Positions 5,540 to 45,600 of a stretch of 64,000 bases of DNA are shown in pieces. The first letter of the stretch is position 1, and each line of letters starts with the position of its first letter. This DNA comes from Candidatus Aenigmatarchaeota archaeon (GTDB lineage Archaea > Aenigmatarchaeota > Aenigmatarchaeia > QMZP01 > QMZT01). The DNA lies in NCBI GenBank assembly GCA_016932735.1, contig JAFGCI010000004.1:124711-188710 (forward strand), given 5' to 3'. Both the position numbers and the translations under genes were made by a program. The notes below the pieces were generated by a model. It was given only the letters and a program-made list of their open reading frames with translations, was not told where the DNA came from and did not search any database.

Positions 5540-6700
5540 GTGAATTACATGAGATTGGTTTATCTTGATAATGCCGCTTCGACGAGAGTCGATGAAAGAG
5601 TAACAGAGGAAATGATACCTTATTTTAATGATAAGTATGCAGTAGCGACATCTGTTTTCAGCTACAGGATGGGACTTGAATCAAAAAAAGCTATTGATTC
5701 AGCCAGGAAAATAATAGCCGAAAAGATTAACGCGTCTTCTGATGAGATAATATTCACTTCCGGAGAAACCGAAAGCAACAATATAGCAATACTCGGCACT
5801 TCCGGAAAAAACAAAGGTAAGAGCCATATAATAACCACGAAAACAGAGCATCTTTCTGTTTTAAAAACCATAGAAAAGCTCAAAGAAGGGGGCTTTTTGG
5901 TAAGTTATGTTCCAGTCGATAAAGAGGGCTTTATAGACTGTAATGCACTTAAAAAATCAATAAAAAAGGAAACTCTTATGGTGGCAATATGTCACGCAAA
6001 CGAGGAAATAGGAACCATACAGAACATAGAAAAGATAGGAAAAATTTGCAGAGAAAAAAAAATACTTTTTCATGTTGACGCCACTCAAACTTTCACGAAG
6101 ATGCCTATTGATGTAGAAAAACTTAATATAACAACACTCACTTTATCCGGCCATACGATACACGGCCCGAAGGGAGCCGGGGCCCTCTTCATAAAAAAGG
6201 GAACTAAAATAGACAAAATAATGCACGGCGGTTTCAATGAATATGATTTAAGGCCGGGTACAGAGAACGTGCCTGCAATAGTCGGCTTCGGTGAAGCAGT
6301 CCGGATTTCCGGAAAGGACTGCAAAAAAGTTTCTGTATTAAGGGACTATCTTATAGAAAGAATAACAAATGAAATCCCCGATATAAAGATAAACGGCCCT
6401 TTGGGTAAAGACAGATTATGCAATAACGTGAACATTTCATTCCATCATGTAGAAGGCGAGTCAATCCTTCTCAGGCTTGATATGAAAGGCATATGCGTCT
6501 CTACGGGTTCGGCATGCTTTTCGAGAAGCCTTGAGATGAGCCCGACAATGAAAGCAATTGGCAATAATCACGAGCTTTCTCACGGCTCCATCAGGTTCAC
6601 ACTGAGTAAATACACAACAAAAGAAGAGATCGATTATACGGTTGAATCGCTTAAGAAGATTATAAAAGAGTTGAGAAAGATAAGCCCATTAGGGAAATAA
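5540..6700 (+). CDS. Cysteine desulfurase (class V aminotransferase, NifS/IscS family)
   Basis: 386 aa. MNYMRLVYLDNAASTRVDERV... N-terminus, PLP-binding lysine context LTLSGHTIHGPKGAGALF, active-site Cys loop STGSAC. An IscU-like gene follows directly. Confidence 0.85.
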   Translation: MNYMRLVYLDNAASTRVDERVTEEMIPYFNDKYAVATSVFSYRMGLESKKAIDSARKIIAEKINASSDEIIFTSGETESNNIAILGTSGKNKGKSHIITTKTEHLSVLKTIEKLKEGGFLVSYVPVDKEGFIDCNALKKSIKKETLMVAICHANEEIGTIQNIEKIGKICREKKILFHVDATQTFTKMPIDVEKLNITTLTLSGHTIHGPKGAGALFIKKGTKIDKIMHGGFNEYDLRPGTENVPAIVGFGEAVRISGKDCKKVSVLRDYLIERITNEIPDIKINGPLGKDRLCNNVNISFHHVEGESILLRLDMKGICVSTGSACFSRSLEMSPTMKAIGNNHELSHGSIRFTLSKYTTKEEIDYTVESLKKIIKELRKISPLGK

Positions 6701-6761: not shown

Positions 6762-7403
6762 ATGTCAGTTTCGCCTTATTCGTACAAAGTCATAAAGCAT
6801 TTCCAGAACCCGAAAAACGTTGGAAGGATAAAGAACCCGGATGGGAAGGCAAGCGAAGGAAGTCCCCTCTGTGGTGACATGGTCAGCCTTTATATTAAAG
6901 TTGACCCCGTTTCAAATATAATAACTGATATAAAATTTGAGTCTTACGGATGTGCCTCAAATATAGCTACAGGCTCAATAATAACGGAGCTCGCAAAAGG
7001 AAAGACTTTGAGTGAAGCCAAAAAAATTGACTGGAAGATGGCCTCCGATGAACTGGGCGGTCTCCCTCCGATGAAAGTTCATTGCTCGGTACTTGCGGTC
7101 GAAGCATTAAGGTCGGCAATAAGTAATTATGAAGAGAAGCACGGTCTCGCAAAACCAGAGGACATAGAGCTCAATGAAGATAACGTGAAGAAGAAGCTTA
7201 GTCACGTTATAAACCCAAATATAGGCAAAGACATTATCTTTTCCAAGACTATCAAAAGCTTCAGCATAAAAGAAGGAATAGTTGAAATAGAACTTGACAT
7301 GGATAAGAAAAACCAGTTTTCAAATAACATATCCGATGAAATAAAGGAATCTCTTTCAACGCTGAAAGGACTGAAAAGAACAGAGATAAAATTCTCTGAT
7401 TAG
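6762..7403 (+). CDS. Fe-S cluster scaffold: IscU/NifU-like N-terminal domain fused to a DUF59 (MIP18/SufT-like) C-terminal domain
   Basis: The N-terminal 120 aa carry IscU motifs (GSPLCGDMVSL, YGCASNIATGS, MKVHCSVLAVEALRSA). The C-terminal ~90 aa (IGKDIIFSKTIKSFSIKEGIVEIELDMD) resemble DUF59. Confidence 0.65.
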   Translation: MSVSPYSYKVIKHFQNPKNVGRIKNPDGKASEGSPLCGDMVSLYIKVDPVSNIITDIKFESYGCASNIATGSIITELAKGKTLSEAKKIDWKMASDELGGLPPMKVHCSVLAVEALRSAISNYEEKHGLAKPEDIELNEDNVKKKLSHVINPNIGKDIIFSKTIKSFSIKEGIVEIELDMDKKNQFSNNISDEIKESLSTLKGLKRTEIKFSD

Positions 7404-7897
7404 GCAATGGTTTTCTCTATGATGGACGTTTTTGCGGAAACCGAATCACACGCATTGTTTGTGACTCTTATTTCATTTGCCGTAGCACCCATGTTTCTGT
7501 ATGATGCGCTGCCATCCAGATCGAGTTTGACATAGACGCTTGCCTCTCTTCCGAGTTTTGTCGTTGAAGTTATGTTAGGGCTTAAAGAAATCAGACTATC
7601 GGTCGAGTTGAATTGAAGTATTTCGCTTGTATTATCAATTATAACACCGAATCCATAAATACCCTCAGCGCCCTGGTTTGTTACTTTCATAATAAGATAA
7701 TTATCTCCCGTTTGATTAAAAATAGCCGATTCTATGATGTAATTGGTTCTGATAATACATGCCATGGAGGAGTCGCTTGTCTGATGGCTGACCCACTGTG
7801 TTACCCATGTAGAAAGCATGACCCCCGTCGTGATGGCAACAGCAATCATTATTACGATAGCTATAATAGGAGAAATGCCTTTCATTTTAGAGTGCAT
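7400..7897 (-). CDS. Archaeal type IV pilin / archaellin-like protein with a class III signal peptide
   Basis: The N-terminus MHSKMKGISPIIAIVIMIAVAITTGVML matches the archaeal pilin N-terminal (DUF361-like) signature KG-[IV]-SPIIA. The rest is Ser/Thr/Asn-rich with several N-x-S/T sequons. Confidence 0.6.
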   Translation of the reverse strand: MHSKMKGISPIIAIVIMIAVAITTGVMLSTWVTQWVSHQTSDSSMACIIRTNYIIESAIFNQTGDNYLIMKVTNQGAEGIYGFGVIIDNTSEILQFNSTDSLISLSPNITSTTKLGREASVYVKLDLDGSASYRNMGATANEIRVTNNACDSVSAKTSIIEKTIA

Positions 7898-14236: not shown

Positions 14237-15004
14237 ATGATACATATGGGAAGGGTAATAGCTGTTGCTTCTGGAAAGGGCGGAGTCGGAAAGACTACTT
14301 TGGTTTCCAATCTTTCAGCATCACTGGCCCGCTATGGCCAGTCTGTAATAGCAGTCGATGCAAATATAACCACTTCAAATCTGGGCATACATCTTGGAGT
14401 CTCACTTTTTCCTGTAACTCTTCATGATATTCTAGACGGAGTAGCTGATGTTAATGATGCGCTATTCCATCATGAACATGGATTTAGAATAGTCCCGGGA
14501 GACATTTCAATAAGGAAACTGAAAAGCTTCAACAAGCGAACAGTAGGCAATACACTCTACAAGCTTTCAGATAAAGCCGATTTCGTTCTCATAGATACAG
14601 CTGCAGGCCTCGGCAAAGAGGCGACGGAGTTTATCAGGGCGGCCGACGAGCTTATAACCGTTACAAATCCAAACCTTCCGGCTGTAACCGATGCATTGAA
14701 GCTGAATGCAATAGCGAAGAGCCATGACACTGTTCCTATTGGGGTCATAATTAACAGGATAATGAACCATCCATCGGAGATGCCTGCGCATGAGATAAGC
14801 GATTTCCTCAGCCTGCCTATCCTTGGGAAGATACCTGAAGATAAGACGGTTCATAAGTCTGTAGCGGCAAAAACGCCAGTAATAGCATACGCACCCAAAT
14901 CACCTGCCGCACAGCACATGAGGTCAATTGCAGCATATCTTATCGGAGAAGAGTTCATACCGCGAAGATCTCTGGGCCATACATTTTTTGGCTGGATGAA
15001 GTAA
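14237..15004 (+). CDS. MinD/ParA-family P-loop ATPase
   Basis: 255 aa with a deviant Walker A motif VIAVASGKGGVGKTT and Walker B VLIDTAAGL. Typical of the MinD/Mrp/ParA family. Confidence 0.8.
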   Translation: MIHMGRVIAVASGKGGVGKTTLVSNLSASLARYGQSVIAVDANITTSNLGIHLGVSLFPVTLHDILDGVADVNDALFHHEHGFRIVPGDISIRKLKSFNKRTVGNTLYKLSDKADFVLIDTAAGLGKEATEFIRAADELITVTNPNLPAVTDALKLNAIAKSHDTVPIGVIINRIMNHPSEMPAHEISDFLSLPILGKIPEDKTVHKSVAAKTPVIAYAPKSPAAQHMRSIAAYLIGEEFIPRRSLGHTFFGWMK

Positions 15005-24181: not shown

Positions 24182-24433
24182 ATGTTCGATGTTTTTTGGT
24201 TTGCGGGAATAATAGGCCTTGTTCTGATAATATCAGGCCTTTTTGCAAAAACAAGGAAGCAGCAGTCCTTAATTTATGTTTTCGGGGGAATTTTTCTGGA
24301 AATATACAGCATTTATATAGGAGACTCGATATTCATAGCGCTTCAGGGAGTATTTACTATAGTAGCCTTATATGAATTCTACCAATATTCCAGAAAGAAG
24401 GAAAGCTGGTTTAGGAAATTTCATCTCAGTTGA
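24182..24433 (+). CDS. Small hypothetical membrane protein (2-3 TM)
   Basis: 83 aa, hydrophobic. Precedes the pilin-like operon. Weak call. Confidence 0.3.
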   Translation: MFDVFWFAGIIGLVLIISGLFAKTRKQQSLIYVFGGIFLEIYSIYIGDSIFIALQGVFTIVALYEFYQYSRKKESWFRKFHLS

Positions 24434-24470
24434 TATCAGATTTTTATACTGAACCGGATAATTATATACT

Positions 24471-25070
24471 ATGAAAAGAAAAGACAGGAAGGGAGCTTTC
24501 CAGTTAAGTCTTGGTTTTATAATCGGGCTGATTTTTGCGGTGATACTGCTTACCTTGTCAATATCATGGATACAAGGCACATTTGTCAGTATGGAAGGGC
24601 TTACAACAGATCTGACGGGAAACGCGAAGGATACTCTTTCAAAGACTTTTGAACAGACGAAAACCAATTTTGACGTGTCCCCAAGCTATTTTGAACTTGC
24701 TCCAGGAGACGGTCTTAAATTCTCTGCAGGAGTAAAAAACGATCATAAAGACGGCAACACACATACCTTTGTCATAAGAGCCTTCCCCGGAACTGCCGAA
24801 TCGATAATAGTTGATGGGTGGAGCTGTGATGACTTTGAAACATGCACAGACCTTCAGGAAGAGATGGCATCATGGATTACATACATAAAAGCAGCTGATA
24901 ATGTCCCCGGCAACGAGAAAATGATGAGGGATATCACAATAAAATTCCCAAACAACGTCAGGAAAGGCGATTACATGTTCAGGGTAATAGCATGCATTGA
25001 CAAGTCGCATACTGAATGTGAAGCCGGTAACTGGGGCTCGGCCAAGACAATAACATTAAGAGTTAAGTAA
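24471..25070 (+). CDS. Pilin-like protein with a class III (prepilin-type) signal peptide
   Basis: N-terminus MKRKDRKG-AFQLSLGFIIGLIFAVILL: a basic n-region ending in Gly, then a hydrophobic helix, as in FlaK/PibD substrates. Beta-rich C-terminal domain with 4 Cys. Confidence 0.5.
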   Translation: MKRKDRKGAFQLSLGFIIGLIFAVILLTLSISWIQGTFVSMEGLTTDLTGNAKDTLSKTFEQTKTNFDVSPSYFELAPGDGLKFSAGVKNDHKDGNTHTFVIRAFPGTAESIIVDGWSCDDFETCTDLQEEMASWITYIKAADNVPGNEKMMRDITIKFPNNVRKGDYMFRVIACIDKSHTECEAGNWGSAKTITLRVK

Positions 25071-25123
25071 CTCTTACTTTTTTTATTCTTTTTATTTGAC
25101 TGACCACCTAATTAATAATAGGT

Positions 25124-25591
25124 GTGATTATGAATGTAAATTTGATTTTCGCCATTATTTTCGCCATAATAGTGATGATTGTTGTAATCTTTTTCGCTGC
25201 CGGCCAATTCAGCGATTTGTTTGAAATCCAGAATCAGGCTACATTCTATAATCAGGTCACAGAATTCGACAAGACCGTTAACAGAGTAGCTGATATGTCT
25301 ATGGGAAGCACACAGCAATTTGAGTTCAATATGCCCTCTCAGATAAGTAAGGTGTGTTTTATTGACAGGAACAACCCGGAATCCAACCCGCCGGGGAACT
25401 GGGAAACCACTAATATAATAGAGGCGATGATAACAGATAACGATTATAACCTTTTCATCTATGATGAAAAGAAGGGTATACCTGAAGGAAAGAAAATAAA
25501 TTATCTTATACCAAGAGAGAATTTCTGCATAAGCAGTTCGAAGACCCTTTGGATTGAAAATAAAGGCAGGTATGTAACGATAACAGAATAG
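25124..25591 (+). CDS. Pilin-like / membrane-anchored hypothetical protein
   Basis: N-terminal single hydrophobic helix NLIFAIIFAIIVMIVVIFFAAGQF, then a soluble domain. Same orientation and tight spacing with neighbours. Confidence 0.4.
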   Translation: MIMNVNLIFAIIFAIIVMIVVIFFAAGQFSDLFEIQNQATFYNQVTEFDKTVNRVADMSMGSTQQFEFNMPSQISKVCFIDRNNPESNPPGNWETTNIIEAMITDNDYNLFIYDEKKGIPEGKKINYLIPRENFCISSSKTLWIENKGRYVTITE

Positions 25592-25604
25592 AAACGGTGT
25601 TAAT

Positions 25605-26657
25605 ATGGATGCCTTTGGAGTATTCAAAATCGTTCTAGGATTGGTAATTTCAGCTTTTATCCTTATAGCGGTCCTGAATTTTGCAGGGTCTTATATGGAT
25701 ATAAACGCCTCAAAAAAACAGGTTTCAGATTTAAAGGCTTTTGAAAGGAGCGTTGGAGATGCATATGTTAATGGCATTCCTTCAAACTACTCCTTCGACA
25801 ATGAAGCCTTTTCGGCCATGAAAATTTATAATCCCCCGCTTCTTGTAACAGAATTCACAAACATAGACTTTGGTTTTGTACCCTTTTTCTTCAAAAGCGG
25901 GAGGGCAGTTTCAATCAGCAGAATGACCGAAGACACCGGTTGGTGGAGATTCGATTATATAGTATCGTTGCCCAAAACCAGGATTGTCTTTATACCGGTC
26001 AAAGACTCCTCAGATGTAGAAGAGACAGTTAAATTGATCTCTTCAGCATTACCGGATACAGAGAACGTGGAACCTAACATACTGTTCGGTTTCGGATGTG
26101 AAGACGTTTCTTATTTTATTCTGGAAAAATGGACGAGGGACAAGTTCATCAAGGATATAATACCTTATATGAAGACAATGGTAGATTTTGAAGACAACTG
26201 TATAGGGAGCACGGGGGCAGATGAAACAATAATATACATTTCTGATGAAATGACAGAATTCGAAAAAGGAATTCTAGTAGTCACTTCAGGTCCTTATTGG
26301 GGCCATATATACACGAATACATCAGGAGTTCTCAGAAATTATACATACAAAGACGGGATGGATATAATGGCCTTTTCGCTGGGCGGACCGGATTTCTACA
26401 TTTATAAGAATGATATATACCTGAAACAGCTCAGGGCGGCGGCAAAACTCAAAATGGATGAAACCGGATTGCTGGGAGCCAGAGCAACAAAACACGATTG
26501 CACTGCTCTATATTCAGTATTTTCAGGAATTCTGCAGCAGATATACGATTCTTCAGGTTCCGAATATAACGATGATATTAACGCTATAATGCTGGCCGAA
26601 AATCTCAGGCGGTCTATAGATTTCTATAAGATTCTGGAGGAATCGGGATGCGCATAG
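25605..26657 (+). CDS. Pilin-like / membrane-anchored hypothetical protein (350 aa)
   Basis: N-terminus MDAFGVFKIVLGLVISAFILIAVLNFAGS (single TM), then a large extracytoplasmic domain. Stop overlaps the next gene's start. Confidence 0.4.
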   Translation: MDAFGVFKIVLGLVISAFILIAVLNFAGSYMDINASKKQVSDLKAFERSVGDAYVNGIPSNYSFDNEAFSAMKIYNPPLLVTEFTNIDFGFVPFFFKSGRAVSISRMTEDTGWWRFDYIVSLPKTRIVFIPVKDSSDVEETVKLISSALPDTENVEPNILFGFGCEDVSYFILEKWTRDKFIKDIIPYMKTMVDFEDNCIGSTGADETIIYISDEMTEFEKGILVVTSGPYWGHIYTNTSGVLRNYTYKDGMDIMAFSLGGPDFYIYKNDIYLKQLRAAAKLKMDETGLLGARATKHDCTALYSVFSGILQQIYDSSGSEYNDDINAIMLAENLRRSIDFYKILEESGCA

Positions 26658-27139
26658 GACAGGCCCATATGATGGAGTATATACTTCTGACCGTGTTCAT
26701 AATAATACTAATGGTAGCTTTCATGATAATGATGACGGTTTTTCAGATAGGAGGAGTCCGCTCAGAGGGAGCTGAACATGTATACAGGCAATCGATAACC
26801 ACAACGAGGTTCATTGTCAACAGCCCATATTTCAATAATCCGAGATTCTCCGACGGGTCGGTTTTTGACGATTCCAAACTATCGGTTGCTGATTGTGAAG
26901 AACTGAGAGAAGTGATAGGTGAAGGCTGGTTTGCTTTTGTCGTTATACCGGGAGCCCTTCAAGAGACACTCTGTGATGAATTCAATTACCCAGAGTGCAA
27001 CAAGTGGATAATATGCGATAAGGCAGATGTTAGGAAAGAAACATGCGTTCATGAAGTTCCTGTGAATATTTACAGGAAGATGGACGATACGATTGATATC
27101 GGAATATTAACGGTGGGTTTGTATGGCAAATGCACATAA
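26648..27139 (+). CDS. Pilin-like / membrane-anchored hypothetical protein
   Basis: N-terminus MRIGQAHMMEYILLTVFIIILMVAFMIMMTVFQ. A Gly-Gln-Ala cut site is possible. Cys-rich C-terminal part. Overlapping start and stop with both neighbours. Confidence 0.4.
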   Translation: MRIGQAHMMEYILLTVFIIILMVAFMIMMTVFQIGGVRSEGAEHVYRQSITTTRFIVNSPYFNNPRFSDGSVFDDSKLSVADCEELREVIGEGWFAFVVIPGALQETLCDEFNYPECNKWIICDKADVRKETCVHEVPVNIYRKMDDTIDIGILTVGLYGKCT

Positions 27140-27659
27140 TCAAAATCTAAACATGTCCCATTCAAGAAGCATGGGATCTTCCAGAACCAAAGGGCAGATG
27201 AGCATGATGGTGTTTGCTTTAGGTGTAGTTTTCTTTATAATGTTAGGCATATTTCTTTTTACTTCAAACATAAAATCAAAAGACACCGATTATGTCAATA
27301 TGTACGTTCATAACCTGCTCTTGTCCACGATGAGAACGAGTACAGGTTATGGGCATCCATGCATCTCAGTCTCTGACACCATTTCATGTGCGTATCTGAC
27401 ACCGAACAGGTTGTGCGGAACAGAGAAATGCTCTGATATAGTACAAAGAGTAACAGAAAGCATCATAGAAAGGGCAATTAAACCGAATTATGGTTATTTT
27501 ATTATAGTGGAGCCGGAAAACTGGGATATTGTCGGTGGGGAGAGAATAACCATGGGAGACCCTGACACTGAAAGCAAGAGACCACATTATGTCGCGAATG
27601 AAAAGATACTTGCCTACGGGAGCAACCTGAGAATAGAACTGATAATTACGACCGGCTAA
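27123..27659 (+). CDS. Pilin-like protein with a class III signal peptide
   Basis: N-terminus ...SRTKGQ-MSMMVFALGVVFFIMLGIFLFTS: a basic n-region ending in KGQ followed by a hydrophobic helix. Confidence 0.5.
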   Translation: MANAHNQNLNMSHSRSMGSSRTKGQMSMMVFALGVVFFIMLGIFLFTSNIKSKDTDYVNMYVHNLLLSTMRTSTGYGHPCISVSDTISCAYLTPNRLCGTEKCSDIVQRVTESIIERAIKPNYGYFIIVEPENWDIVGGERITMGDPDTESKRPHYVANEKILAYGSNLRIELIITTG

Positions 27660-27691: not shown

Positions 27692-28972
27692 ATGGGAAAA
27701 AAGGTTTCTATACTCAATTACGGATGCACTGCTAACCATAGCCATGGAGAAATAATAGCCGGCACCCTGAAAGAACACGGTTTTATTGTTGTAGGAGAAC
27801 CAAAAGAGTCAGAAGTAATTATAATTAACAGCTGTATAGTCAAGTCTGTGACAGAGAATAGAATTAAGTCCAAAATAATAGAACTAACAAGAAAACATCC
27901 ACAGAAGCTCATTATACTCACGGGATGCGGAGCCGACGCTGAATACGGGACTTTCCGTAAAATAAATAAAAACATGATATTTGTTTCTTCGCACCACGTT
28001 AATGATATCATTGAAGCAATTGAAGAAAAGAAAGATTTTCTGGGTATCAGAAAAGAAGACAAACTACTGAAACCGAAAAAAAGGAAAAATGAGATAGTGA
28101 ATATAGTGGAAATATCACAGGGATGCCTCGGCAATTGCACGTTCTGTATAACAAAGAATGCCCGCGGAAAGCTGGAATCATATGATTCTGATAAAATCGT
28201 CAGAGAAATAGAAAAATCACTGAATGAAGGCTGCAAAGAGATATGGCTGACGTCACAGGACTGCGGTTGCTATGGTCTTGATACCAAAGAAAACCTATGC
28301 ACACTTCTGGAAAAAATAGGTAAAATAGAAGGAAATTTCAGGGTCAGAATCGGAATGTCAAATCCACAGTTCATCAGAAAGTTCCCTGAAGAATTATCAC
28401 GAATTTTAAAAGATGATAAATTCTTCAAATTTCTTCATATACCGGTTCAGTCCGGTTCTGATAAAATATTAAGGCTAATGAAAAGAGGCCACACCGTAGG
28501 CGATTTCAAAAAAATAATAAATGCCATGAGAATAAACATTCCAGATATTACAATATCTACTGATATCATTGTGGGATTTCCTGAAGAGACAGAAGCCGAT
28601 TTCAAAGAATCAGTGAAGCTTCTTCGGGACGCAAATCCGGATATAATCAACATATCTAAATTCGGAGCAAGGCCGGGAACAGAGGCAAAAACAATGAAAC
28701 AAATCGATTCAAAAAAGATAAAGGAAAGGACAGTTCTGTTGGGAGAAGTTGCTGAAAAAATAAAGAAAGAAAAAAACAAATACCATATAGGCAAGGCATA
28801 TACAATACTTATTGATGAACACGGCAAAAGAAAGAACCAGATGATAGGCCGTAGCGAGAATTATAAGCCTGTTATCATTGAAACCGAAGATGAACTGATG
28901 GGTAGATTTGTTAATGTAAAAATAAAGGAAGCAAAAGAGACTCACCTTCTCGGGGAGATTATATCGGAATGA
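27692..28972 (+). CDS. Radical-SAM methylthiotransferase, MiaB/RimO family (archaeal e-MtaB-like, t6A37 methylthiotransferase)
   Basis: 426 aa. N-terminal MTTase domain with a Cys triad (NYGCTANH...NSCIV...TGCGA), radical SAM CxxxCxxC (CLGNCTFC), C-terminal TRAM domain. Confidence 0.8.
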   Translation: MGKKVSILNYGCTANHSHGEIIAGTLKEHGFIVVGEPKESEVIIINSCIVKSVTENRIKSKIIELTRKHPQKLIILTGCGADAEYGTFRKINKNMIFVSSHHVNDIIEAIEEKKDFLGIRKEDKLLKPKKRKNEIVNIVEISQGCLGNCTFCITKNARGKLESYDSDKIVREIEKSLNEGCKEIWLTSQDCGCYGLDTKENLCTLLEKIGKIEGNFRVRIGMSNPQFIRKFPEELSRILKDDKFFKFLHIPVQSGSDKILRLMKRGHTVGDFKKIINAMRINIPDITISTDIIVGFPEETEADFKESVKLLRDANPDIINISKFGARPGTEAKTMKQIDSKKIKERTVLLGEVAEKIKKEKNKYHIGKAYTILIDEHGKRKNQMIGRSENYKPVIIETEDELMGRFVNVKIKEAKETHLLGEIISE

Positions 28973-29372
28973 AACCCGCGAGCAATTCTATTATAGTCGG
29001 TATAACAAGAAGGCTCAGTACAAATCCGATAACACCTATTATGATCGCGTGCATCATGTGGACATCCTTGAAGAATAGTTTTATACCCAGAATCCATACA
29101 ATGAGCGGAAAAATTATACCGATTAGCGGTATGAAAGCAATATATCCATATATCAGGCCGGAGAATATCGGCATGTTAATGATATTGATTAGCAGCGCCA
29201 GCATAAACGCATGAGTCGGAGCTATGTCCTCATCGGGCCCTCTTGCAATTATTTTTGTCAGCACTATTATTACAATGCCCATAACTATTGTGGATAAAAT
29301 AATATTTACAGCCATTCCTATGGGGTCACCGAAGTTGAGGCCACCGGTAACTGCATCAAGAATATCTGTCAT
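28959..29372 (-). CDS. Small hypothetical membrane protein (about 4 TM)
   Basis: 137 aa and very hydrophobic. Its 3' end overlaps the 3' end of the MTTase gene (convergent). Confidence 0.35.
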   Translation of the reverse strand: MTDILDAVTGGLNFGDPIGMAVNIILSTIVMGIVIIVLTKIIARGPDEDIAPTHAFMLALLINIINMPIFSGLIYGYIAFIPLIGIIFPLIVWILGIKLFFKDVHMMHAIIIGVIGFVLSLLVIPTIIELLAGFIPI

Positions 29373-35664: not shown

Positions 35665-36591
35665 ATGTCTGGGTATTTTATAATTGAGTCAGGAAGGAAG
35701 AACAGAACATGCGAAATCATGATTGTTGATAAGCCTGAAAAACTGGAAGCAATGTCCAATATCATAGCATGGAAGCTTCTCGAATTAATGAAGACTCCTC
35801 AGTGTCCTATTGACCTTGCAAGAGCGCTGAAAATTCACGAGCAGAAAGTCTATTATCACATAAGAAAGCTGAGAGATGCAGGGATCATTGAGGAGGTCAG
35901 GACAGAAAGTCGGCATGGAACCGTGGCAAGGTTCTATGAAATAAAATCCAGTGCTATTGGCACGTTTTTGCCAGGAGCAAAAATGGAAAAGATAACCTTT
36001 GCTGCTCCCCGATACAACAGGAACATGGAACCTTTCATTGTTGAAGGGAGATCGAACTTTACGATAGTGGTCGGCTCACCGGAGCCACACGGACCATTCC
36101 GAGCCCGCGCCTCGGATGCGATGTGTGCAATCGATTTAGGTTTGTTCTTGGGTTCCTTCACAACGGGAATTGAGGAAGCCAACTACAAACTGGACGTCGA
36201 AATCAGAGAAAGGGATTTGAAACAGAATTTGATAATAATAGGCGGTCCTGTTGCCAACATGATTACGAAAAAAATAAACGAGAAGATGCCCATAAAAATA
36301 ATGCTTAAAATGGACAGGAGTATATTCTCAGCACTTTCAAAAAAATACTACGATAACGATGCAAGCGGTTATATCATTGTAACTGATAATCCATGGGCAA
36401 AGGGAAAAAGGATAATGGTTCTTGCCGGAAAAAGATTTATCGGTACGCGGGCAGCAGTGCTTTTTCTGATAAAAAAATTCGACAAAATATTCGAGGGCAA
36501 CAGATGGGACAGCAATATACTGGCACGCGTTGTCAGAGGATACGATATGGACGGTGACGGGATAATAGACACCGCGGAGCTCATTGAATAA
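35665..36591 (+). CDS. Winged-helix (ArsR/TrmB-like) transcriptional regulator with an uncharacterised C-terminal domain
   Basis: N-terminal HTH (SNIIAWKLLELMKTPQCPIDLARALKIHEQKVYYHIRKLRDAGIIEE). C-terminal ~200 aa without recognisable motifs. Divergent from glmS and immediately upstream of the giant surface-protein gene. Confidence 0.5.
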   Translation: MSGYFIIESGRKNRTCEIMIVDKPEKLEAMSNIIAWKLLELMKTPQCPIDLARALKIHEQKVYYHIRKLRDAGIIEEVRTESRHGTVARFYEIKSSAIGTFLPGAKMEKITFAAPRYNRNMEPFIVEGRSNFTIVVGSPEPHGPFRARASDAMCAIDLGLFLGSFTTGIEEANYKLDVEIRERDLKQNLIIIGGPVANMITKKINEKMPIKIMLKMDRSIFSALSKKYYDNDASGYIIVTDNPWAKGKRIMVLAGKRFIGTRAAVLFLIKKFDKIFEGNRWDSNILARVVRGYDMDGDGIIDTAELIE

Positions 36592-36693: not shown

Positions 36694-39600
36694 GTGAGCA
36701 GCACTTATAAGTCACAAGGTACAGCTTCAAGTCTATTTATAGTCTTCTCGGTAATATTGTTCTCGCTCACAACACTATTCGTATTAACAGTCTTTGCTTC
36801 TTCTGAGTTCATTGTTTATACGAATAAGGGTACTTATAATCCTGAAGAGCCTATAGTCATAGTCGTAGAAGGTCCCCCCTTCACCGAATTCTATCTGACA
36901 GTTCTCAATAAGAACATGAAGCAGGTATTTCCAATCGGAGACCCTTTATGGAAACTGAACAGCCATGGAATGCACAATTTTTATCTGGAGGGATTTTCAG
37001 AAAGCGGAATGTACACTGCTAAAGTACTTTCCGGAGAAAAGAATACCCAGTCAACTTTTTATGTGGCCTCTTCCCAGACCGAATTAACAGAAGAACCGGC
37101 TGAACAGGAAACACCTGCTTCTGAAAGCAACATCCAGATACAATCAAAAACTGAAGAAAAAAAGGTTATTGTCGCATCTAGGGAAGAGGTAAAAGAGATT
37201 GAAATCTCTGAAAAGCCAAAATATGGACTTGGATGGGAGGAAGTCTGTAAGGAAGGAAAATGCACAAAGACCATAAGCTCATATTTAAGCTCGATGCAGG
37301 ACAGTGAAGGAGAGTACAGGCCGTTCAACGAACTTGTAAAGCTTAATAAGAAGAGTTCAGGCTCTTACCAGTATCTTGAGATAGACTGGAATTCAAATAA
37401 AGTCGGAATGGACCCTTATGCTGTAATAAACCGCCAGAAGGTGGATGACCTTCCCCCATCAATGAGCTTTAACACGATAACAAAAGAAATCGCGGGCCAG
37501 TATAAATGGTCCTACGAATTCAGGAATATACATAACCTTGAAGCAATTGGAATAAAAATAAATTCGAACGGAGGTATTCTAGAAGTCGTGGATGATGACA
37601 CTATAATCATTGACGGAATTGAGTTAGACTTCTCCGACCTTTACAATTCATGCGACGAATATGGCATCTGCACAGACTCGGGAATTATGGTATCGATAGA
37701 CCAGATAGATTTGAACACAGCCGACGTAAGAATAACCAATTTTGAAGGAACTATAGTGCTCCTGGATCCGACAATAAAGTTGCAGACGGCTGACACCCAG
37801 AATCTCGATGACTCCCATGTCAGAAGCAACTCGGCTACCTCGACTTATGGAACAGACACCGCCTTAAGGCTGAGGTCGAGGTCCAACTTCAAATACAGGT
37901 CATATGTGAAATTCAATATCTCTTCAATACCCTCCGCAGCCACGATACAGGATTCTAAGCTTTGCCTTTATTTGTACAGCGACGACTCGACGCCTTCTGC
38001 AGGGGCGTACCACGTTTACGATTACACATGGACAGAGGAAGCGCTCACATGGAACAACCAGCCATGCGGAACCAACTTTGATAGCACCACAAACTGCAAC
38101 ATTACAGCCGAGAACACCCAGACTACAAGCGGAACCGGCTGGATTTGCTGGAATATCACAAAGATGGTTGCAACCGAGAAATATCAGGGAGATGAGAACG
38201 TTTCTGTGGCTATTAAAACAACAGAAACCGACGGCAATGTAGGAGAGGATGCTTTTTATTCGAAGGAGTACACAACTGATACGAGCCTTCGACCTTACCT
38301 TAACATAACCTATGAAATGCCTCCTGCAATTACTTCAGTCGCAAACTCGTCAACAACTGATATATCAACACTGATAACATGGACAACCGATAAGAACGCC
38401 AACTCGTCGGTAGTTTACGGGAACACTACATCACTGCTCGACGGCTCAAATTCATCTGCAACATTTACAACTGCTCATTCAATTCAGCTTACAAACCTGA
38501 ATCCTCAGACGCTTTATTATTACAACGTGACCAGCTGTGGTTTGGGAACCAAGTGCAATACAACAGGCCCTTACAATTTCACAACTTCGGAGTCTCCTGA
38601 TGCAACCAATCCGATAGCTTCGCTGGGAACGAATCCGGTCGCCAATTACAACGATACTGACGGTTCGGTCACATTCGACCTGAAATGCTCCGACAATAGG
38701 GGTGTTGGTACACTCCAGCTCTGGAGCGACTGGACAGGCTCATGGTCAGCCAATCAGACCAACTCATCCCCGGTAAACAACTCGGTCTGGTCGGTCCTTG
38801 TCGAAGGAATCCCCGAAGGCATATGGTCATGGGGAGCCCACTGCAACGACACTTCAGGAAACGAAGGTTGGACAGACTTAAATAGGACAATAACCATTGA
38901 TACGAAGCCGCCACAGATAACATCAGTTACCAATTCATCAACAACATTTGACCATACCGATATAGTATGGACGACCAACGAGCCTGCAAACTCTTCAATA
39001 ATATACGGAAAGATCGAATTTATGGAAGATGGTTATGAGTCATCCACTTCTCTGATTTATTCACATTCACTATACATTGAGAACCTTGACTCCGAAACGC
39101 TGTATTATTACAATGTGACTTCATGCGATTTTATAGGAAACTGCAATACTACGGGACCATATACATTCAAAACGGCTAGAATGCCTGAAGCGGGGATACC
39201 TTTGGTCTATCTTGGAGGCGAACCCCAAAATTACTTCAATTCATCCTCAGGAAATGTAGAATTTGAAATCAAATGCATTGATGACGGCGAGATAGATTCG
39301 CTCCAGCTGTGGAGCGACTGGAGCGGTTCATGGTCTGGAAATGAAACCAACTCAACATCAATAAATGACACATGGTGGAGCTTTTCTGTCAGCGGAATTC
39401 CTGAAGGTACATGGATTTGGGGGGCATCGTGCAGCGACAAAGAAGAGAATACGGGATGGTCGGCACTTAACAGGACGCTTACAATTGATCTGGCACATCC
39501 CGAGATTTCTTTGCAAGACCCTGAGCCATTTTATAACACAACTTCACAGGACGTGAATTTTATTTTCAGGGCGACAGATAATATGGCAACTGTCCTGTCA

Positions 39601-42600
39601 TGCTCTCTTTACATAAACGGATCTTTTTCCGCGGTTAACTCGTCTGTAATAAACGGCTCATTGACAACATTTGAGAAAACGGGTCTTTCCGAAGGACTCT
39701 CTCAGGACTGGGCAATAAACTGCACGGATTATGCAGGAAATTCATACCAGGCTCCGGAAAGGCACTTTTCAATTGATGCAACGCCCCCCATCACTTCTTT
39801 TGAGAATATGCCTATCGATAATTACAATTATTCTTCCCGTTCTCTCTTATTCGAGCTTTACTGCATAGACAATACAGCTCCTCACACCCTTCAGCTATGG
39901 AGCGACTGGTCAGGCTCATGGTCAGCCAATCAGACCAACTCATCCCCGGTAAACAACTCGGTCTGGTCGGTCCTTGTTGAAGGAATCCCTGAAGGCATAT
40001 GGTCATGGGGAGCCTACTGCAAAGACACTCTCGGTAATAGCGATTGGACTGATGTCAACAGAACCCTTACAATTGATATTACAAAGCCTCAAATTACAGA
40101 TGTAACAAATGAATCGATCACTCATACATCGACAATAATATCATGGAATACTGACGAGCCTGCAAATTCCAGTATTTCATACGGAAGAACGGAAGACCTT
40201 AATGAAGGAATTTCATATTCATCAAATTTTGTGTTTTTTCATCAGGCAAGCCTTTCAAGTCTTTTATGCGATACGCTCTATTACTATAATATAACGTCCT
40301 GCGACTTTGCAGGAAACTGCGACACGACAGGGCCGTACAGCTTTAGGACAAAGCAATATCAGCCTCTTCTAGTGAATACGGTTACGGCATGCGCAGCACA
40401 TGATTCCAAGGCGAGAGGAACATTTGACATAGCATGCGACGCTCCCGACGGCTCTTACCTTGAATCAAATGACGGGAACTACGAAGACCACACGTATACA
40501 AAATCGCTTTATGCCGGAGTGAGGATAGAATCAGTAGATGCAGAAGAGACCAAGTGCTATGGAATTGAGTCTGTTTATATATGTTACGAATGGTGGGGCA
40601 CCAATACTCCTCAGGACTGCGATATATCTGTTGATGCTGATGGTGGCGCAAGCTATACAGTCGCGTCATCAACATGCCCGGGAACGATAGCAGATCCTGG
40701 ACCCCAATGCCTTGATGTGACATCACTTGAAACATGGACATGCCAGAATTTTTTTGGCCCGACCGGAACAAGGGCAGTTGCCAAGTCTGAATTCAGAAGG
40801 ACGAGTGCGGGCGGAGGCAGCACTGAAATTGCATATTGGGACATATTATATTTTAACGTGAGCTATCTTGCAGATATAAAGCCTCCCGAAGTTGTTCTCA
40901 ATAATCCTGCTGACAATTTTAATTCAAGCTCCGGAGATATATACTTTAATTGCACAGGTTTTGATGAAGTTAATCTTACCAGCATAAACCTTTATGGAAG
41001 CTGGGGTCCGGGATGGCATCTCAATGCAACAAATGACAGCGTAATTAACAACACATTAACAACATTCAATGTGAAAGGAATAAAAGAAGGGACATATGAA
41101 TGGAACTGCTATGCATGTGGTAACTTTACAAATTGCCAATTTTACTCGGTTAATTATACAATCACAGTCGATACGACAGCTCCAACAGTCTCACTCTCCT
41201 CACCAATTCCGGACTTCAACACGACCTCAGAATCAATAGACTTCATATTCACGGCCACCGACAACCTCGCATCAGCCCTTTCCTGCGACCTTATAATCAA
41301 CGGCTCAGTTGCCGGAACGAACTCATCAACACTAAACGGCACCCTGACAACATTCATCCAATCATCTTTATCAGAAGGCTTAGACCAGACATGGGCAGTC
41401 AACTGTTCCGACTCCGCGCAAAACAGCAATCAGCCATCAGCAAGGACATTCAGCATCGACCGCACAGGACCATCCATCGCCTTCCCATACTACGCCAACG
41501 CGACAAAGAAAACATCATCCCAGACACTGACCATAAACCTCTCCGTGACAGACACAGGACTAGGACCTGACATATGCCTTGTCCATATTGAAGGGCAGTC
41601 AGCAAACCAGACCATCCCATATGTCAGCGGATGGTGCAACGGGACGATCTCACTGACCAATGCGAATGAAGGCAACTCAACAATCTATGCATACGCAAAC
41701 GACACATTGAACAACTTCGGCCTCAACAGTTCCTATGTAATATACATAGACGACTCTCCGCCAATAATCTCATCAGTAACAAACGCATCCACGACCAACG
41801 AAACAACATTAATCACATGGTCGACCAACGAGCCAGCCAACTCTTCTGTAATCTACGGGACCGACAACACGACCCTGTCAGACGGCTCTAACTCATCCGA
41901 AACCTTAACAAGCTCACACTCATTAGCCCTTAAAGACCTGACACAGGACACCATGTATTACTACAATGTGACATCCTGCGACTCACTAAACAACTGCATA
42001 ACAGAAGGTCCATACAGTTTCAAAACGGCTTTATCAGAGGACGATTTTGATTCTCCGGTAATAAGCCTTATTCTTCCGTTAAACAATTCCGGGGACAATG
42101 ACGGAAACGTCTCTTTTTCATACAACGTCACAGACGACTCTAGCATCTTGAATTGTTCGTTGATTTTGAACGGGCAGATAAACCAGACGAATTCGACTGT
42201 CCAGAAAACAATTACCCAGTATTTCAATGTTACCAGCCTTCCGGCCGGTCATTACAACTGGAGCATAAGATGCACTGACGATTCGCCTAATGAAAACACA
42301 CAGACCACAGCATCAAGAAATATTGACATGATAATTTATTCGGCCCCGGTGGAAAACTTTACAATGACAGACTTGTCACAGGTTGATACTTCAAACATCA
42401 CGGATTTCTATATAGAGATAGAAAATAAGACGAGACTTATATTCAACGAGACTCTGGATTTATCAGGCGGATTAGATTTGTCATCAATAATAACAATCCA
42501 GAGCAATTTCATAGATGTCGATACAGCCTCTGAGCCAAGGCTCAATAAATCTGCAGAAATAACTTTCCATAATCTTTCCTATATCTTTAATCCGGTCATA

Positions 42601-45600
42601 CTAAGGAACGGGAAAGAATGCCCGTCTTCTATATGCATGGACAATTATTACAATTTGGGAGAAGGTGTTCTCAGGTTTAATGTAACCCAGTTTACAAACT
42701 ATTCAAGTTCCGAAAACAGCCGGCTTGAAATCTGGGACAGCGGTGATGAAGAGGGCGGGCTTAATATACACAATCCCGGTGATATTGTGGCATTCTATGC
42801 CAATTATACCAATTTGACAAGTTCCGAATCAATAAACGGAACTGGAATAAACTGTACAATAAATTTCGAGGATGGCAGCATCAACATGACCTTTAATGAA
42901 AGCTCTGCTATATACTGGTATAACAGGACTTTCACGACAGCCGGGCTGAAAGAATGGAACGTTTCCTGCAACGGTTCAGTTCAGGACTATGAGCCCCTTA
43001 TCGTCACGGAAACAATTACCATATACGAGCCATGGTGGAACGACAGCTGGAAGTACAGGATTCCAGTGACTATAGAGAATTATTCATATGTGCTTGAAGA
43101 CTTCCAGGTTCTGATAACAATTGACAGTTCAAGCGCTCCTGAAAACTGGAACTGGTCCCAGCAGAACGGAGTCCGCTTCGTTTGGGTGAACGATTCAGGC
43201 GACATTGAAATTCCTCATTATACACCTTACTGGAGTGCCGTTTCTGAGGAAGCGCAGATATGGATAAAGATGCCTGAGATTTCGAATGTTACCAATGAAA
43301 CTGTTCACCTGTATTATGAAAATCCGTCAGCTTCAGATACAAGCAACGCCACAAAAGTCTATGATGTCTATAATGACTTTGAATCCGGAATGGATTATTT
43401 TACACAAAGGAACACAGACGGCGGAGCATGTTCATTAAGCGGGGGAAGGCTTGTCTGCGATCCGAACACACAATGGTCAGGCGCTTATGCCTACACAGAT
43501 TACAACTTCACAACAAAGTATGGATACTACATAGAATTCCGGATGTGGAAAAACCAGTCGACATCAGGATCACCTCCCTTCGGATTCAGTACAGTTTATA
43601 TGAGGAAACCTTATCCGGATCTGGGCTATGAGACTACCTATTATTATACAGCCCAGTCGTCGTCGCTGATAATAGAGGATCGTGTCGATACAGGAAGCTA
43701 CAATGAACAGCAGACTTATGCCAAATGGAACAACGGCACATTCACAGGCAAAGATGACAAATCATGGGCTCAGTACGATAACCAGCCTTATGATTATATT
43801 GTGGTATGGGATACGGACAGCAACATTCTTTCCCAGAACGTAACCCATAACGGTACTTTGCATTCTTCCCAAAGTTATATTCCTGAAAGCGTAATAACCG
43901 ACATTGGAAGCTGGTGGAAGCTGGAAGTCGGAACCTTTGGCTACTATGACACTAATGCAGAATATGATTCCATATCTATGAGAAAATACATAGCAGATGA
44001 AATTGCTCTGTATTACGGCGAAGAGGAGACATCCGGACTCGTTCTAAGCGTAACCAGCCCGTCAAACACATCCTATTCGAATGCGACAATGACTTACAGC
44101 GGATATACAAACAACAACGCTACAATAAGAATGAGCATCAACGGAAACGATAATTATACTTTCTGCTCAAGCTGCACGTCTTTTGGCCTGTCGACATCTG
44201 AAAATGTTACGGAAGGCTCCAATAACGTGACCTTCTGGGCAATCAGCACTGCAAATACATCAGTGGTTGTCAATGAAACAGTATGGTTTTACTTAGATAC
44301 GATTGTGCCTGAAGTTGAATGGAATCCGGAAGCGACCGAGTCAGGGACGCAGTCAAACGTTGAAATTTTGATTAACTGCTCTTTTGATGAAACAAACCCC
44401 CATACAAAAGGATACCAGTTCAATGGAACAAATTCGACCTCATGGGACGGCAACGACGGAATGAATTACTGGGTTGTAAAGAACAGTCTGGAATTCGGAA
44501 ACTACAACGATATATATTGCTGGATAAATGACACCCTCGGACATTATAACGAGACTTCAAAAAGAGAAATAAGCATTCTATGGCTGGATTGGTGGGACGC
44601 GGACTGGACACTAAGAACACCCATAAGTCTTGAAGAAAAAGCGGATAAATATGACTTAATTAATATGACCTTTATGCTGTCGATTAATACATCAAAACTT
44701 TATAATGAAGGCAAAATAAGAGACGACTGCGGGGATATAAGGTTTGTCTATAATGAATCGCATAAGGAGATTCCATATAACTTCACGGAATGTGAAATCA
44801 CGGGCGGAAATACGACATTCTGGATAATGTTTGATCTCGATCGTGCTGATACAATGCTACTGTACATGTACTACAACAATTCAGAGGCGTCAGCAACAAG
44901 ACAGACTCTGAAGCCATACGATACTGAGGATTGTACATTCTTTGACAGTCTTGACGGCTCGACAGCAGGTTCTATAACAGGCTCTGAATTCACGGACTAT
45001 GAATGGGTTACTGATGGCAGGGGAGCAGGCATGCTTTATGAACTTACATCGTCATTTGAGAATTCATGGGCTTACAATCCGGGTTCCGAGGGAACTATTG
45101 AATTCTGGCTAAAGCTTGACGAGGAAATAAATACATCAAGCACGGTGTCTGCCAAGACAATAATTTCATCGGGAAGGAACGGCATATCATTTGATCAGGC
45201 AAGCGGCGCAAATAATGTTCCGGGCCACATTATATTTGGCATCTCACCATCTGCGGGATTCTATTCGGAGATTTACACAAATCAGGACAAATGGTATGAA
45301 GATAACTTCTATCATATAGCCGTTACGTGGGACGGTTCCACTCAGAGCATATATGTAAACGGAACCCTTGACAAGAGCCAGACGCAGACGAGAGCAGGTG
45401 GATGGGGTTCATCTGTTCTGACAAACAGGAATTCCAACTGGGGGAGCAATGCTTATAAGATAAGTAACGTAAGATTATGCCCGGCAGCAAAAACATCCTT
45501 CCAGTATGTCGTTTATCCGGAGCCGAATTCAACTATTCAGCCGGAGGAAACAGTGCCTTTCCTTGATATCGGTTCACCAGTCAATACAACCTATTATTCG

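Follow-up and report, generated by a model that had tools for sequence, protein, structure and literature searches.

A conserved five-gene cassette of pilin-like proteins from a DPANN archaeon, a candidate minor-pilin set

The minor pilins of the Epd pilus, a Clade 1 or "System 1" type IV pilus (T4P) found in Methanococcus, Thermococcus and some DPANN archaea (EpdA-D, processed by EppA), are several class III signal proteins encoded together, and they offer the closest parallel to the locus described here. Clade 1 loci in archaea encode at least five minor-pilin-like proteins along with large DUF2341 proteins, and MinD/FleN-like ATPases are their frequent companions (PMC4858521). The pilus genes of Methanococcus maripaludis are distributed over at least four loci, with ATPase and platform apart, while in Haloferax pilA1-6 lie apart from pilB/pilC, and orphan PilB homologs have been described (PMC3875500, PMC4371748). 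In bacteria, the tip complexes of the type II secretion system (T2SS; GspH-I-J-K) and of the type IVa pilus (T4aP; FimU-PilV-W-X-E plus the adhesin PilY1) comprise about five small pilin-like proteins from one tightly coupled operon, a parallel of architecture only. A further set of small class III signal proteins, BasA-C of the Sulfolobus bindosome, is believed to build a short surface structure that arranges other proteins of the cell surface. Here we describe a cassette of five genes, named P1 to P5, in a stretch of 64,000 nucleotides of contig JAFGCI010000004.1 (hereafter the window), and favour, with some reserve, the reading that they encode a minor-pilin-like set that would act in priming, or at the tip, of an adhesion pilus, the machinery of which would be encoded elsewhere.

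The DNA of the window is that of a DPANN archaeon: the P3 protein has an identical counterpart, annotated as hypothetical, in a Candidatus Aenigmarchaeota metagenome-assembled genome (MAG) retrieved by protein search, and the neighbouring archaeal housekeeping genes encode RtcB, archease, PheRS alpha and beta, CTP synthase and a MiaB-like enzyme. The open reading frames (ORFs) of the cassette and the two non-coding elements associated with it are as follows (aa, amino acids; Ig, immunoglobulin; a slash within a sequence marks the putative processing site here and below).

24441-24448, + strand: TATA-like box TTTTTATA, 30 nt upstream of the P1 ATG, putative promoter
24471-25070, + strand: P1, 199 aa, 4 Cys, one N-terminal helix and a predicted Ig-like beta-sandwich
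25078-25093, + strand: T-rich tract (T7 and T5 runs) 3' of P1, putative oligo-T attenuator
25130-25591, + strand: P2, 153 aa, 2 invariant Cys, leaderless N-terminal helix MNVNLIFAIIFAIIV
25605-26657, + strand: P3, 350 aa, 4 conserved Cys, signature protein of the cassette
26648-27139, + strand: P4, 163 aa, 6 Cys, short leader
27123-27659, + strand: P5, 178 aa, 4 conserved Cys, leader ...SSRTKG/QMSMMVF

An initial annotation of this DNA had listed five consecutive same-strand ORFs of 199, 155, 350, 163 and 178 aa, each with a single N-terminal hydrophobic helix and some with overlapping starts and stops, and all of this holds, with one adjustment to P2: the mechanical ORF from GTG 25124 gives 155 aa, the ATG at 25130 gives 153 aa, and an AGGTG (25120-25124) lies 5 nt upstream of this ATG. 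A Kyte-Doolittle scan found one strongly hydrophobic segment in each of P1-P5, at the N-terminus (19-mers of 2.6-3.5). The feature had also been taken to begin at 24182, which is the first position of a separate ORF (24182-24433, + strand; 83 aa) with three predicted transmembrane (TM) helices and a weak LAB_N/PQ-loop-like match, kept in close relatives. We rejected this ORF as a cassette member because the cassette lacks it in four related loci (L007, L014, L016 and L020), and therefore place the start of the cassette at 24471.

The five genes follow each other with intergenic gaps of 59, 13, -10 and -17 nt, P3 and P4 thus overlapping by 10 nt and P4 and P5 by 17 nt, and tight spacing or overlap is seen again in the relatives. 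GGAGG lies upstream of the P4 ATG and GGTG upstream of that of P5, and in eight loci an A/T box comparable to TTTTTATA precedes the P1 start by 24-32 nt. The TTTTTATA box is likely the promoter of an operon transcript that would be leaderless or near-leaderless; a box before P1 combined with GGTG or GGAGG before the internal genes would correspond to the usual archaeal operon with a leaderless first gene. The number of Cys is even in each protein (4, 2, 4, 6 and 4 for P1 to P5), and an even number of conserved Cys per protein fits an extracellular location.

The P1-P2-P3-P4-P5 order with tight spacing recurs in all the loci read (L002/L004, L003, L005, L006, L007/L008, L009, L010/L011, L012, L014, L016, L019 and L020-22), and at identities of 20-70% (down to about 20-30%) it is maintained in at least 12 independent loci, with flanking genes that differ in the deeper lineages. 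A word-indexed protein search returned 6, later 13, relatives of P3; an exhaustive profile search returned 128 P3 representatives of 50% clusters, nearly all of 340-400 aa and devoid of any Pfam domain. The named members are mostly Aenigmarchaeota MAGs, one being labelled Nanoarchaeota and one Micrarchaeota, and a scan of metagenomes gave no locus beyond those already known in this analysis. Within each of the five families the alignment spans the full length of the protein and contains invariant Cys, Trp and Gly. The conserved order, lengths and invariant positions argue for a functional module and not for a chance run of ORFs, and the operon proposed initially is a genuine, co-transcribed-looking set of surface proteins with pilin-like N-termini. 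Chance open frames, or decaying genes without function, would suit genes that have neither a database annotation nor a domain match. This explanation is refuted by a conservation of order and length at 20-70% identity across many MAGs, with invariant Cys and Trp, by the 128 representatives of the P3 family and by the confident AlphaFold models obtained for P1 and P3, so that we consider it next to impossible. Antisense ORFs over the cassette were dismissed as shadows, as stop codons interrupt them in the homologous loci.

The N-termini suggest what kind of surface proteins these could be. In archaeal class III signals, the hydrophobic H-domain comes directly after a short N-terminal leader that ends in Gly, Ala or Ser (-1), with a charge at -2 (PMC4371748). 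The EppA substrates of Methanococcus are cut at RAQI, KGQV, KGQV, KGQL and KGQI, with an obligatory Gln at +1 (PMC4371748 Table 1; PMC3875500), and EppA-dependent pilins combine this Gln with a Glu at +5 after a leader of 5-13 aa ending in Gly (PMC3875500). In the window, prepilin-type sites are found in P1 (MKRKDRKG/A; in full, MKRKDRKG/AFQLSLGFII), P4 (MRIG/Q) and P5 (...RTKG/Q), those of P1 (RKG/A) and P5 (TKG/Q) conforming to the class III rule. The P1 family, with 16 or more homologs, follows the motif [KR]K[GA]A/F[QDE]LSLGFII or KG/[ML]EVGIGFII, its +1 residue being Ala, Phe or Met. P4 follows M..[KR].[GA]/Q...M[ML][ED] after a leader of 3-6 aa, with [GA]Q in 11 of 12 loci and KVQ in one (MRIG/QAHMMEY in the window), and P5 follows [KRS][GA]/Q..M in 12 of 12 loci, once the start in L016 is corrected to MTERGQ. 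The same boundary, K[GA]/Q, is present in eight of eight loci in X6, a large protein encoded 3' of the cassette in more distant relatives. Of the Epd features, the +1 Gln is thus found in P4, P5 and X6 in nearly all loci, and the acidic residue only in P4, at +6.

P2 and P3 differ from this pattern, and the initial description of five class III proteins stands for P1, P4 and P5 only. P2 (MNVNLIFAII in the window) follows M[NDES][VIM][NGT].. and runs into the helix directly in all loci read, and P3 (MDAFGVFKIV) belongs to a family of about 100 homologs with an MxS[VI][FY]Q[VIL]F[KQR]II.G N-terminus, which has no basic leader and no fixed Gly or Ala. Neither has a charged leader or a conserved Gly/Ala, nor conforms to the class III rule. 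Judged by their sequences, these leaderless pilin-like proteins would fit an uncleaved N-terminal anchor. The initial annotation rightly noted that none of the five has the KGISPIIA-type signature, which is found in the window in a canonical archaeal pilin (7400-7897; motif KGISPIIA) matching TIGR02537 at E=1.9e-4, at the model cut-off. We also applied a home-made class III rule ([KR]x?[GA] within the first 32 residues, followed by a stretch of 20 residues of which 13 or more are strongly hydrophobic, and no charge from +7 to +20) to every ORF of 35 aa or more in the six frames of the window, and it picked only five: this canonical pilin, P1, P4, P5 and the second of two giant ORFs described below.

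Comparisons between the families (hhalign) aligned residues 2-38 of P2 with 13-49 of P1 at a probability of 81%, the start of P2 corresponding to about +5 of mature P1; similarity between P4 and P5 was limited to ten residues around GQ, and none was found between P3 and X6. Being alike only in the N-terminal helix, the families are not recent paralogs. P4, P5 and X6 thus have no detectable mutual homology beyond the boundary and yet share the same [KR][GA]Q motif, for which recognition by one processing enzyme is the simplest explanation. The conserved motif before the helix in P1, P4 and P5 would also argue against an ordinary Sec signal or signal-anchor class. Together with the [KR]K[GA] of P1, the [KR][GA]Q boundary in P4, P5 and X6 agrees with the published class III rule and the Epd sites.

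Predicted folds were obtained for two of the proteins. The AlphaFold model of P1 (16 sequences; predicted local distance difference test, pLDDT, of 87) consists of a helix (9-41), a hinge, a short helix (49-62) and an Ig-like sandwich (67-198). That of P3 (13 sequences; pLDDT 78.6; predicted template modelling score, pTM, of 0.75) has an N-terminal helix of 54 residues (3-56) and a mixed alpha/beta domain, with a beta-rich middle part and a C-terminal three-helix bundle. In both models a long N-terminal helix is followed by a globular beta-rich domain, as in the type IV pilin fold. The helix plus Ig-sandwich build of P1 is archaeal-pilin-like, a resemblance that is compatible with a pilin but not diagnostic of one: Foldseek gave 115 matches at E<=1e-3, all of them generic Ig-like, PapD-like, MSP or WxLIP domains. 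The most conserved block of P3 is its first 30 residues; a conserved N-terminus is typical of pilins, and the restricted alphabet of membrane helices contributes to this conservation.

The size and build of P1, which are those of archaeal major pilins, bring up another possibility, namely that the cassette encodes a distinct filament of its own, with P1 as a major pilin unlike the PilA-type pilus of the 7400-7897 pilin, and P2-P5 as the assembly or minor subunits dedicated to it, present at low abundance. P1 opens the cassette behind the TATA-like box, it has the longest basic leader, and the T-rich tract that follows it in the clade of the window would permit a higher expression; this oligo-T tract could possibly let P1 be expressed above P2-P5. 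Similar T-rich P1-P2 spacers are found in L002, L005, L007 and L016; in L006 and L009 the tract is absent and the spacer measures 1-6 nt, so that differential expression is not general. Moreover, Epd-type major pilins are stand-alone proteins of about 70 aa (PMC4858521), and a filament of this kind shares with the minor-pilin reading the weaknesses of having no link to machinery and no family match. We therefore hold a separate P1 filament to be quite unlikely.

In the minor-pilin-like set that we favour, P1-P5 would be expressed from one operon as five extracytoplasmic proteins with disulfide bonds, the pilin-like N-terminal helix of each serving as its membrane anchor. The leaders of P1, P4 and P5, and of X6 where present, would be removed at [KR][GA]/ by an archaeal prepilin peptidase, and the +1 Gln of P4 and P5 may point to an EppA-like enzyme, while P2 and P3, which begin directly with the helix, would probably be used uncleaved. 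Together, the five proteins would most likely prime or cap a filament as a minor-pilin-like complex, extruded by the ATPase and platform of a type IV filament encoded elsewhere in the genome. P1 may be the most abundant member, a candidate filament-forming or shaft-proximal subunit, and P3 could serve as a large cap-like or scaffold member.

The adhesive role that we infer for this assembly comes from the relatives. In seven loci of more distant lineages (L006, L009, L010, L012, L014, L016 and L020), the cassette is followed by X6 (616-841 aa; K[GA]/Q N-terminus; 8-10 Cys) and then by X7 (600-1880 aa), a protein rich in Cys (up to 98) that carries an ordinary Sec-type signal. The positions of X6 in these loci are the following.

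L006, 13591-15453: X6 family, 3' of the cassette
L009, 8575-10443: X6 family, 3' of the cassette
L010, 11047-12903: X6 family, 3' of the cassette
L012, 2191-4071: X6 family, 3' of the cassette
L014, 13272-15122: X6 family, 3' of the cassette
L016, 14556-16475: X6 family, 3' of the cassette
L020, 13594-16119: X6 family, 3' of the cassette

Pfam and the PDB gave no match for X6 or X7. The pairing of a large class III protein with a giant secreted one downstream parallels minor pilins plus adhesin, and since X6 and the giant Sec-secreted X7 follow the cassette in most relatives, the assembly would probably present an adhesin for attachment to a surface or host. The clade of the window has no X6 or X7 at this place, a MiaB-like gene following the cassette instead, and tblastn found no copy of either in the window. 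In L010, a 132-aa ORF (6291-6689; MKGQ/MFVLTIIFLTGLIFV) located immediately before the cassette adds another small pilin-like gene of the EppA type.

Compared with the Epd system, the cassette has in common the [KR][GA]/Q form of the processing site with Gln at +1 (PMC4371748 Table 1), an acidic residue near +5 in P4 (here +6), and a locus apart from the ATPase and platform genes (PMC3875500). Large putative adhesins are a further likeness, Clade 1 having its DUF2341 giants (PMC4858521) and the window a DUF2341 giant of its own (36694-47625). It differs in that it has no detectable sequence relation to DUF361/Class_IIIsignal or to the arCOG-derived models used, in that two of its five proteins are leaderless, and in that no EppA, MinD or TadC gene is present in its locus and no EpdE-like major pilin of about 70 aa, which we sought, was found in the window. 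A MinD/FleN-like P-loop ATPase encoded in the window (14237-15004, + strand) lies among unrelated genes.

The bacterial tip complexes resemble the cassette in the make-up of the operon. GspK is a much larger member of the GspH-I-J-K set, to which P3 (350 aa) can be likened, and the position of PilY1 can be likened to that of the large non-pilin Sec-signal protein after the cassette in the relatives. However, we found no sequence or fold similarity to these complexes for the cassette proteins, whose host is an archaeon with one membrane, and the bacterial minor pilins carry a prepilin leader, whereas P2 and P3 have none at all. As for the bindosome, one P4 homolog gave a weak N-terminal match to the BasB model (E=0.016), which is far below the cut-off, restricted to the helix region and non-significant; the Bas genes are linked to BasE/BasF (ATPase and platform), unlike the cassette, which also has no substrate-binding proteins nearby.

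The only secretion ATPase of the window (PF00437; 1982-3673, - strand) lies about 21 kb from the cassette, in line with the initial annotation, which had placed the only FlaI-like ATPase some 20 kb away and seen no assembly gene nearby. In a PDB search it is closest to the GspE of Archaeoglobus fulgidus (afGspE, 2OAP, E=3e-117), then to FlaI and then to CpaF, a ranking that bears on the Epd comparison as well. No TadC/FlaJ platform gene stands beside it, nor in the approximately 1.8 kb upstream of the window, which added only an RPA-like gene. Searched by tblastn against 21 loci, this ATPase found its own copy only, and no homolog of the PilA-type pilin was found within 10 kb either; gene tables and tblastn agree that assembly genes are likewise missing near the cassette in all related loci, and the T2SSF and Peptidase_A24 families are not present in the gene tables of the loci read. 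The ATPase gene sits between RtcB plus an eS26-like ORF of 88 aa on one side and archease on the other, as an "orphan" PilB-like ATPase. A 137-aa membrane protein (28959-29372) was considered as a peptidase and rejected, being too small and without a GxGD motif. The absence of an assembly ATPase, pointed out in the initial annotation, is ordinary, the pilus genes of M. maripaludis and the pilA genes of Haloferax being likewise unlinked. Since unlinked pilin loci are known (PMC3875500, PMC4371748), the missing ATPase is an unremarkable and weak argument against a pilus role, and the link of the cassette to a type IV machine is putative.

Several observations nevertheless speak against a minor-pilin set. 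No ATPase, TadC/FlaJ or peptidase gene lies within 10 kb on either side of the cassette in any locus read, and no EppA or PibD gene was seen within the 64-kb window. Pfam and NCBIfam gave no significant match for the five proteins, their neighbours, homologs or isolated N-termini, and PF07790 (Pilin_N), PF04021 (Class_IIIsignal/DUF361) and TIGR02537 were not matched by full-length proteins or isolated 48-aa N-termini even at E<=10. The initial designation as pilin-like thus finds support in the helix plus Ig-sandwich model of P1 and none in these three families, which match none of the five. Searches of PDB sequences with the family profiles were empty for the cassette families (a match to a designed TIM barrel was dismissed as a composition artefact). 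No archaeal pilin is among the top 50 Foldseek matches of P1, which are generic Ig-like folds, and the P3 model has no fold match in the PDB or among the BFVD viral structures (Foldseek, E<=1e-3). As to processing, the cleavage motif is absent from P2 and P3, P4 in the window has Gly at -1, Arg at -3 and an uncharged Ile at -2, where most homologs have Lys or Arg, and one P4 homolog has Val at -1.

Some of these observations would suit a membrane-anchored surface complex outside any type IV filament, a stalk or docking platform for giant surface proteins or an S-layer, with signal-anchor helices whose leaders may or may not be trimmed, and with no need of an ATPase or platform. Such a complex would explain that a T4P machinery gene is linked in none of about 12 loci, that no pilin family is matched, and that P2 and the signature protein P3 are without a peptidase site; the best fold matches of P1 include WxL-interacting and PapD-like domains of surface complexes, and large surface proteins adjoin the cassette in most relatives. 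However, an ordinary anchor gives no reason for [KR][GA]Q to be conserved over deep divergence in three unrelated families, this motif is a documented EppA-type processing site (PMC4371748), and the helices are better conserved than the ectodomains (P3), as in pilins. We thus regard a non-filamentous complex as a serious alternative, though not a likely one, and prefer the minor-pilin-like set. A bolder proposal, which we put forward only tentatively and consider unlikely as it stands, is that the cassette, X6 and X7 form an undescribed, lineage-specific attachment apparatus of Aenigmarchaeota-type DPANN, in which a short pilus or pseudopilus, made of EppA-type subunits and nucleated by the leaderless P2 and P3, would bear a giant adhesin for contact with the host; it might be derived from type IV systems and be primed in a novel manner, or even assemble without a dedicated ATPase.

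Accessory proteins of pilin-like type encoded in a separate locus are already known, and the lack of an ATPase nearby is ordinary. What is new are the families themselves, for which no model exists and whose members all carry the annotation hypothetical, the constant arrangement of seven genes in a DPANN lineage, and the two leaderless pilin-like members, including the signature protein P3 with its unmatched fold. DPANN archaea spend their lives attached to other cells, and the means by which they recognise a host and keep hold of it are largely unexplained. A conserved, unannotated cassette that is encoded with very large surface proteins in most relatives is therefore a concrete candidate for a part of the DPANN attachment machinery. 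It offers testable targets in the three predicted peptidase substrates with their G/A-Q site, the two leaderless partners and P3 with its unmatched fold, and five or six new protein families missed by current pilin models for annotation. If it turned out to be merely another minor-pilin set, the gain would be a better annotation and not new biology.

Further along the window, two giant ORFs were found.

36694-47625: giant ORF 1, 3643 aa, with CBM96, two DUF2341, Big_3_3 Ig-like, LamG and a Nup98-type autopeptidase match
48392 to beyond the window end (64000): giant ORF 2, more than 5203 aa, paralogous to giant ORF 1

In both, the N-terminus is a short polar leader that precedes a long hydrophobic helix (MSSTYKSQG/TASSLFIVF in ORF 1 and MKKSQVKFGSG/QLSILFVF in ORF 2), ORF 2 being the one picked by the home-made class III rule, and these proteins could be giant pilin-like or pilus-associated adhesins. 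No tRNA genes, and no Rfam families at gathering threshold, were found in the window. Directly upstream of giant ORF 1 lies a gene for a protein of 308 aa (35665-36591, + strand) with weak N-terminal helix-turn-helix (HTH) matches and a C-terminal S_layer_C domain (PF05124), which is syntenic in L002 and L003.

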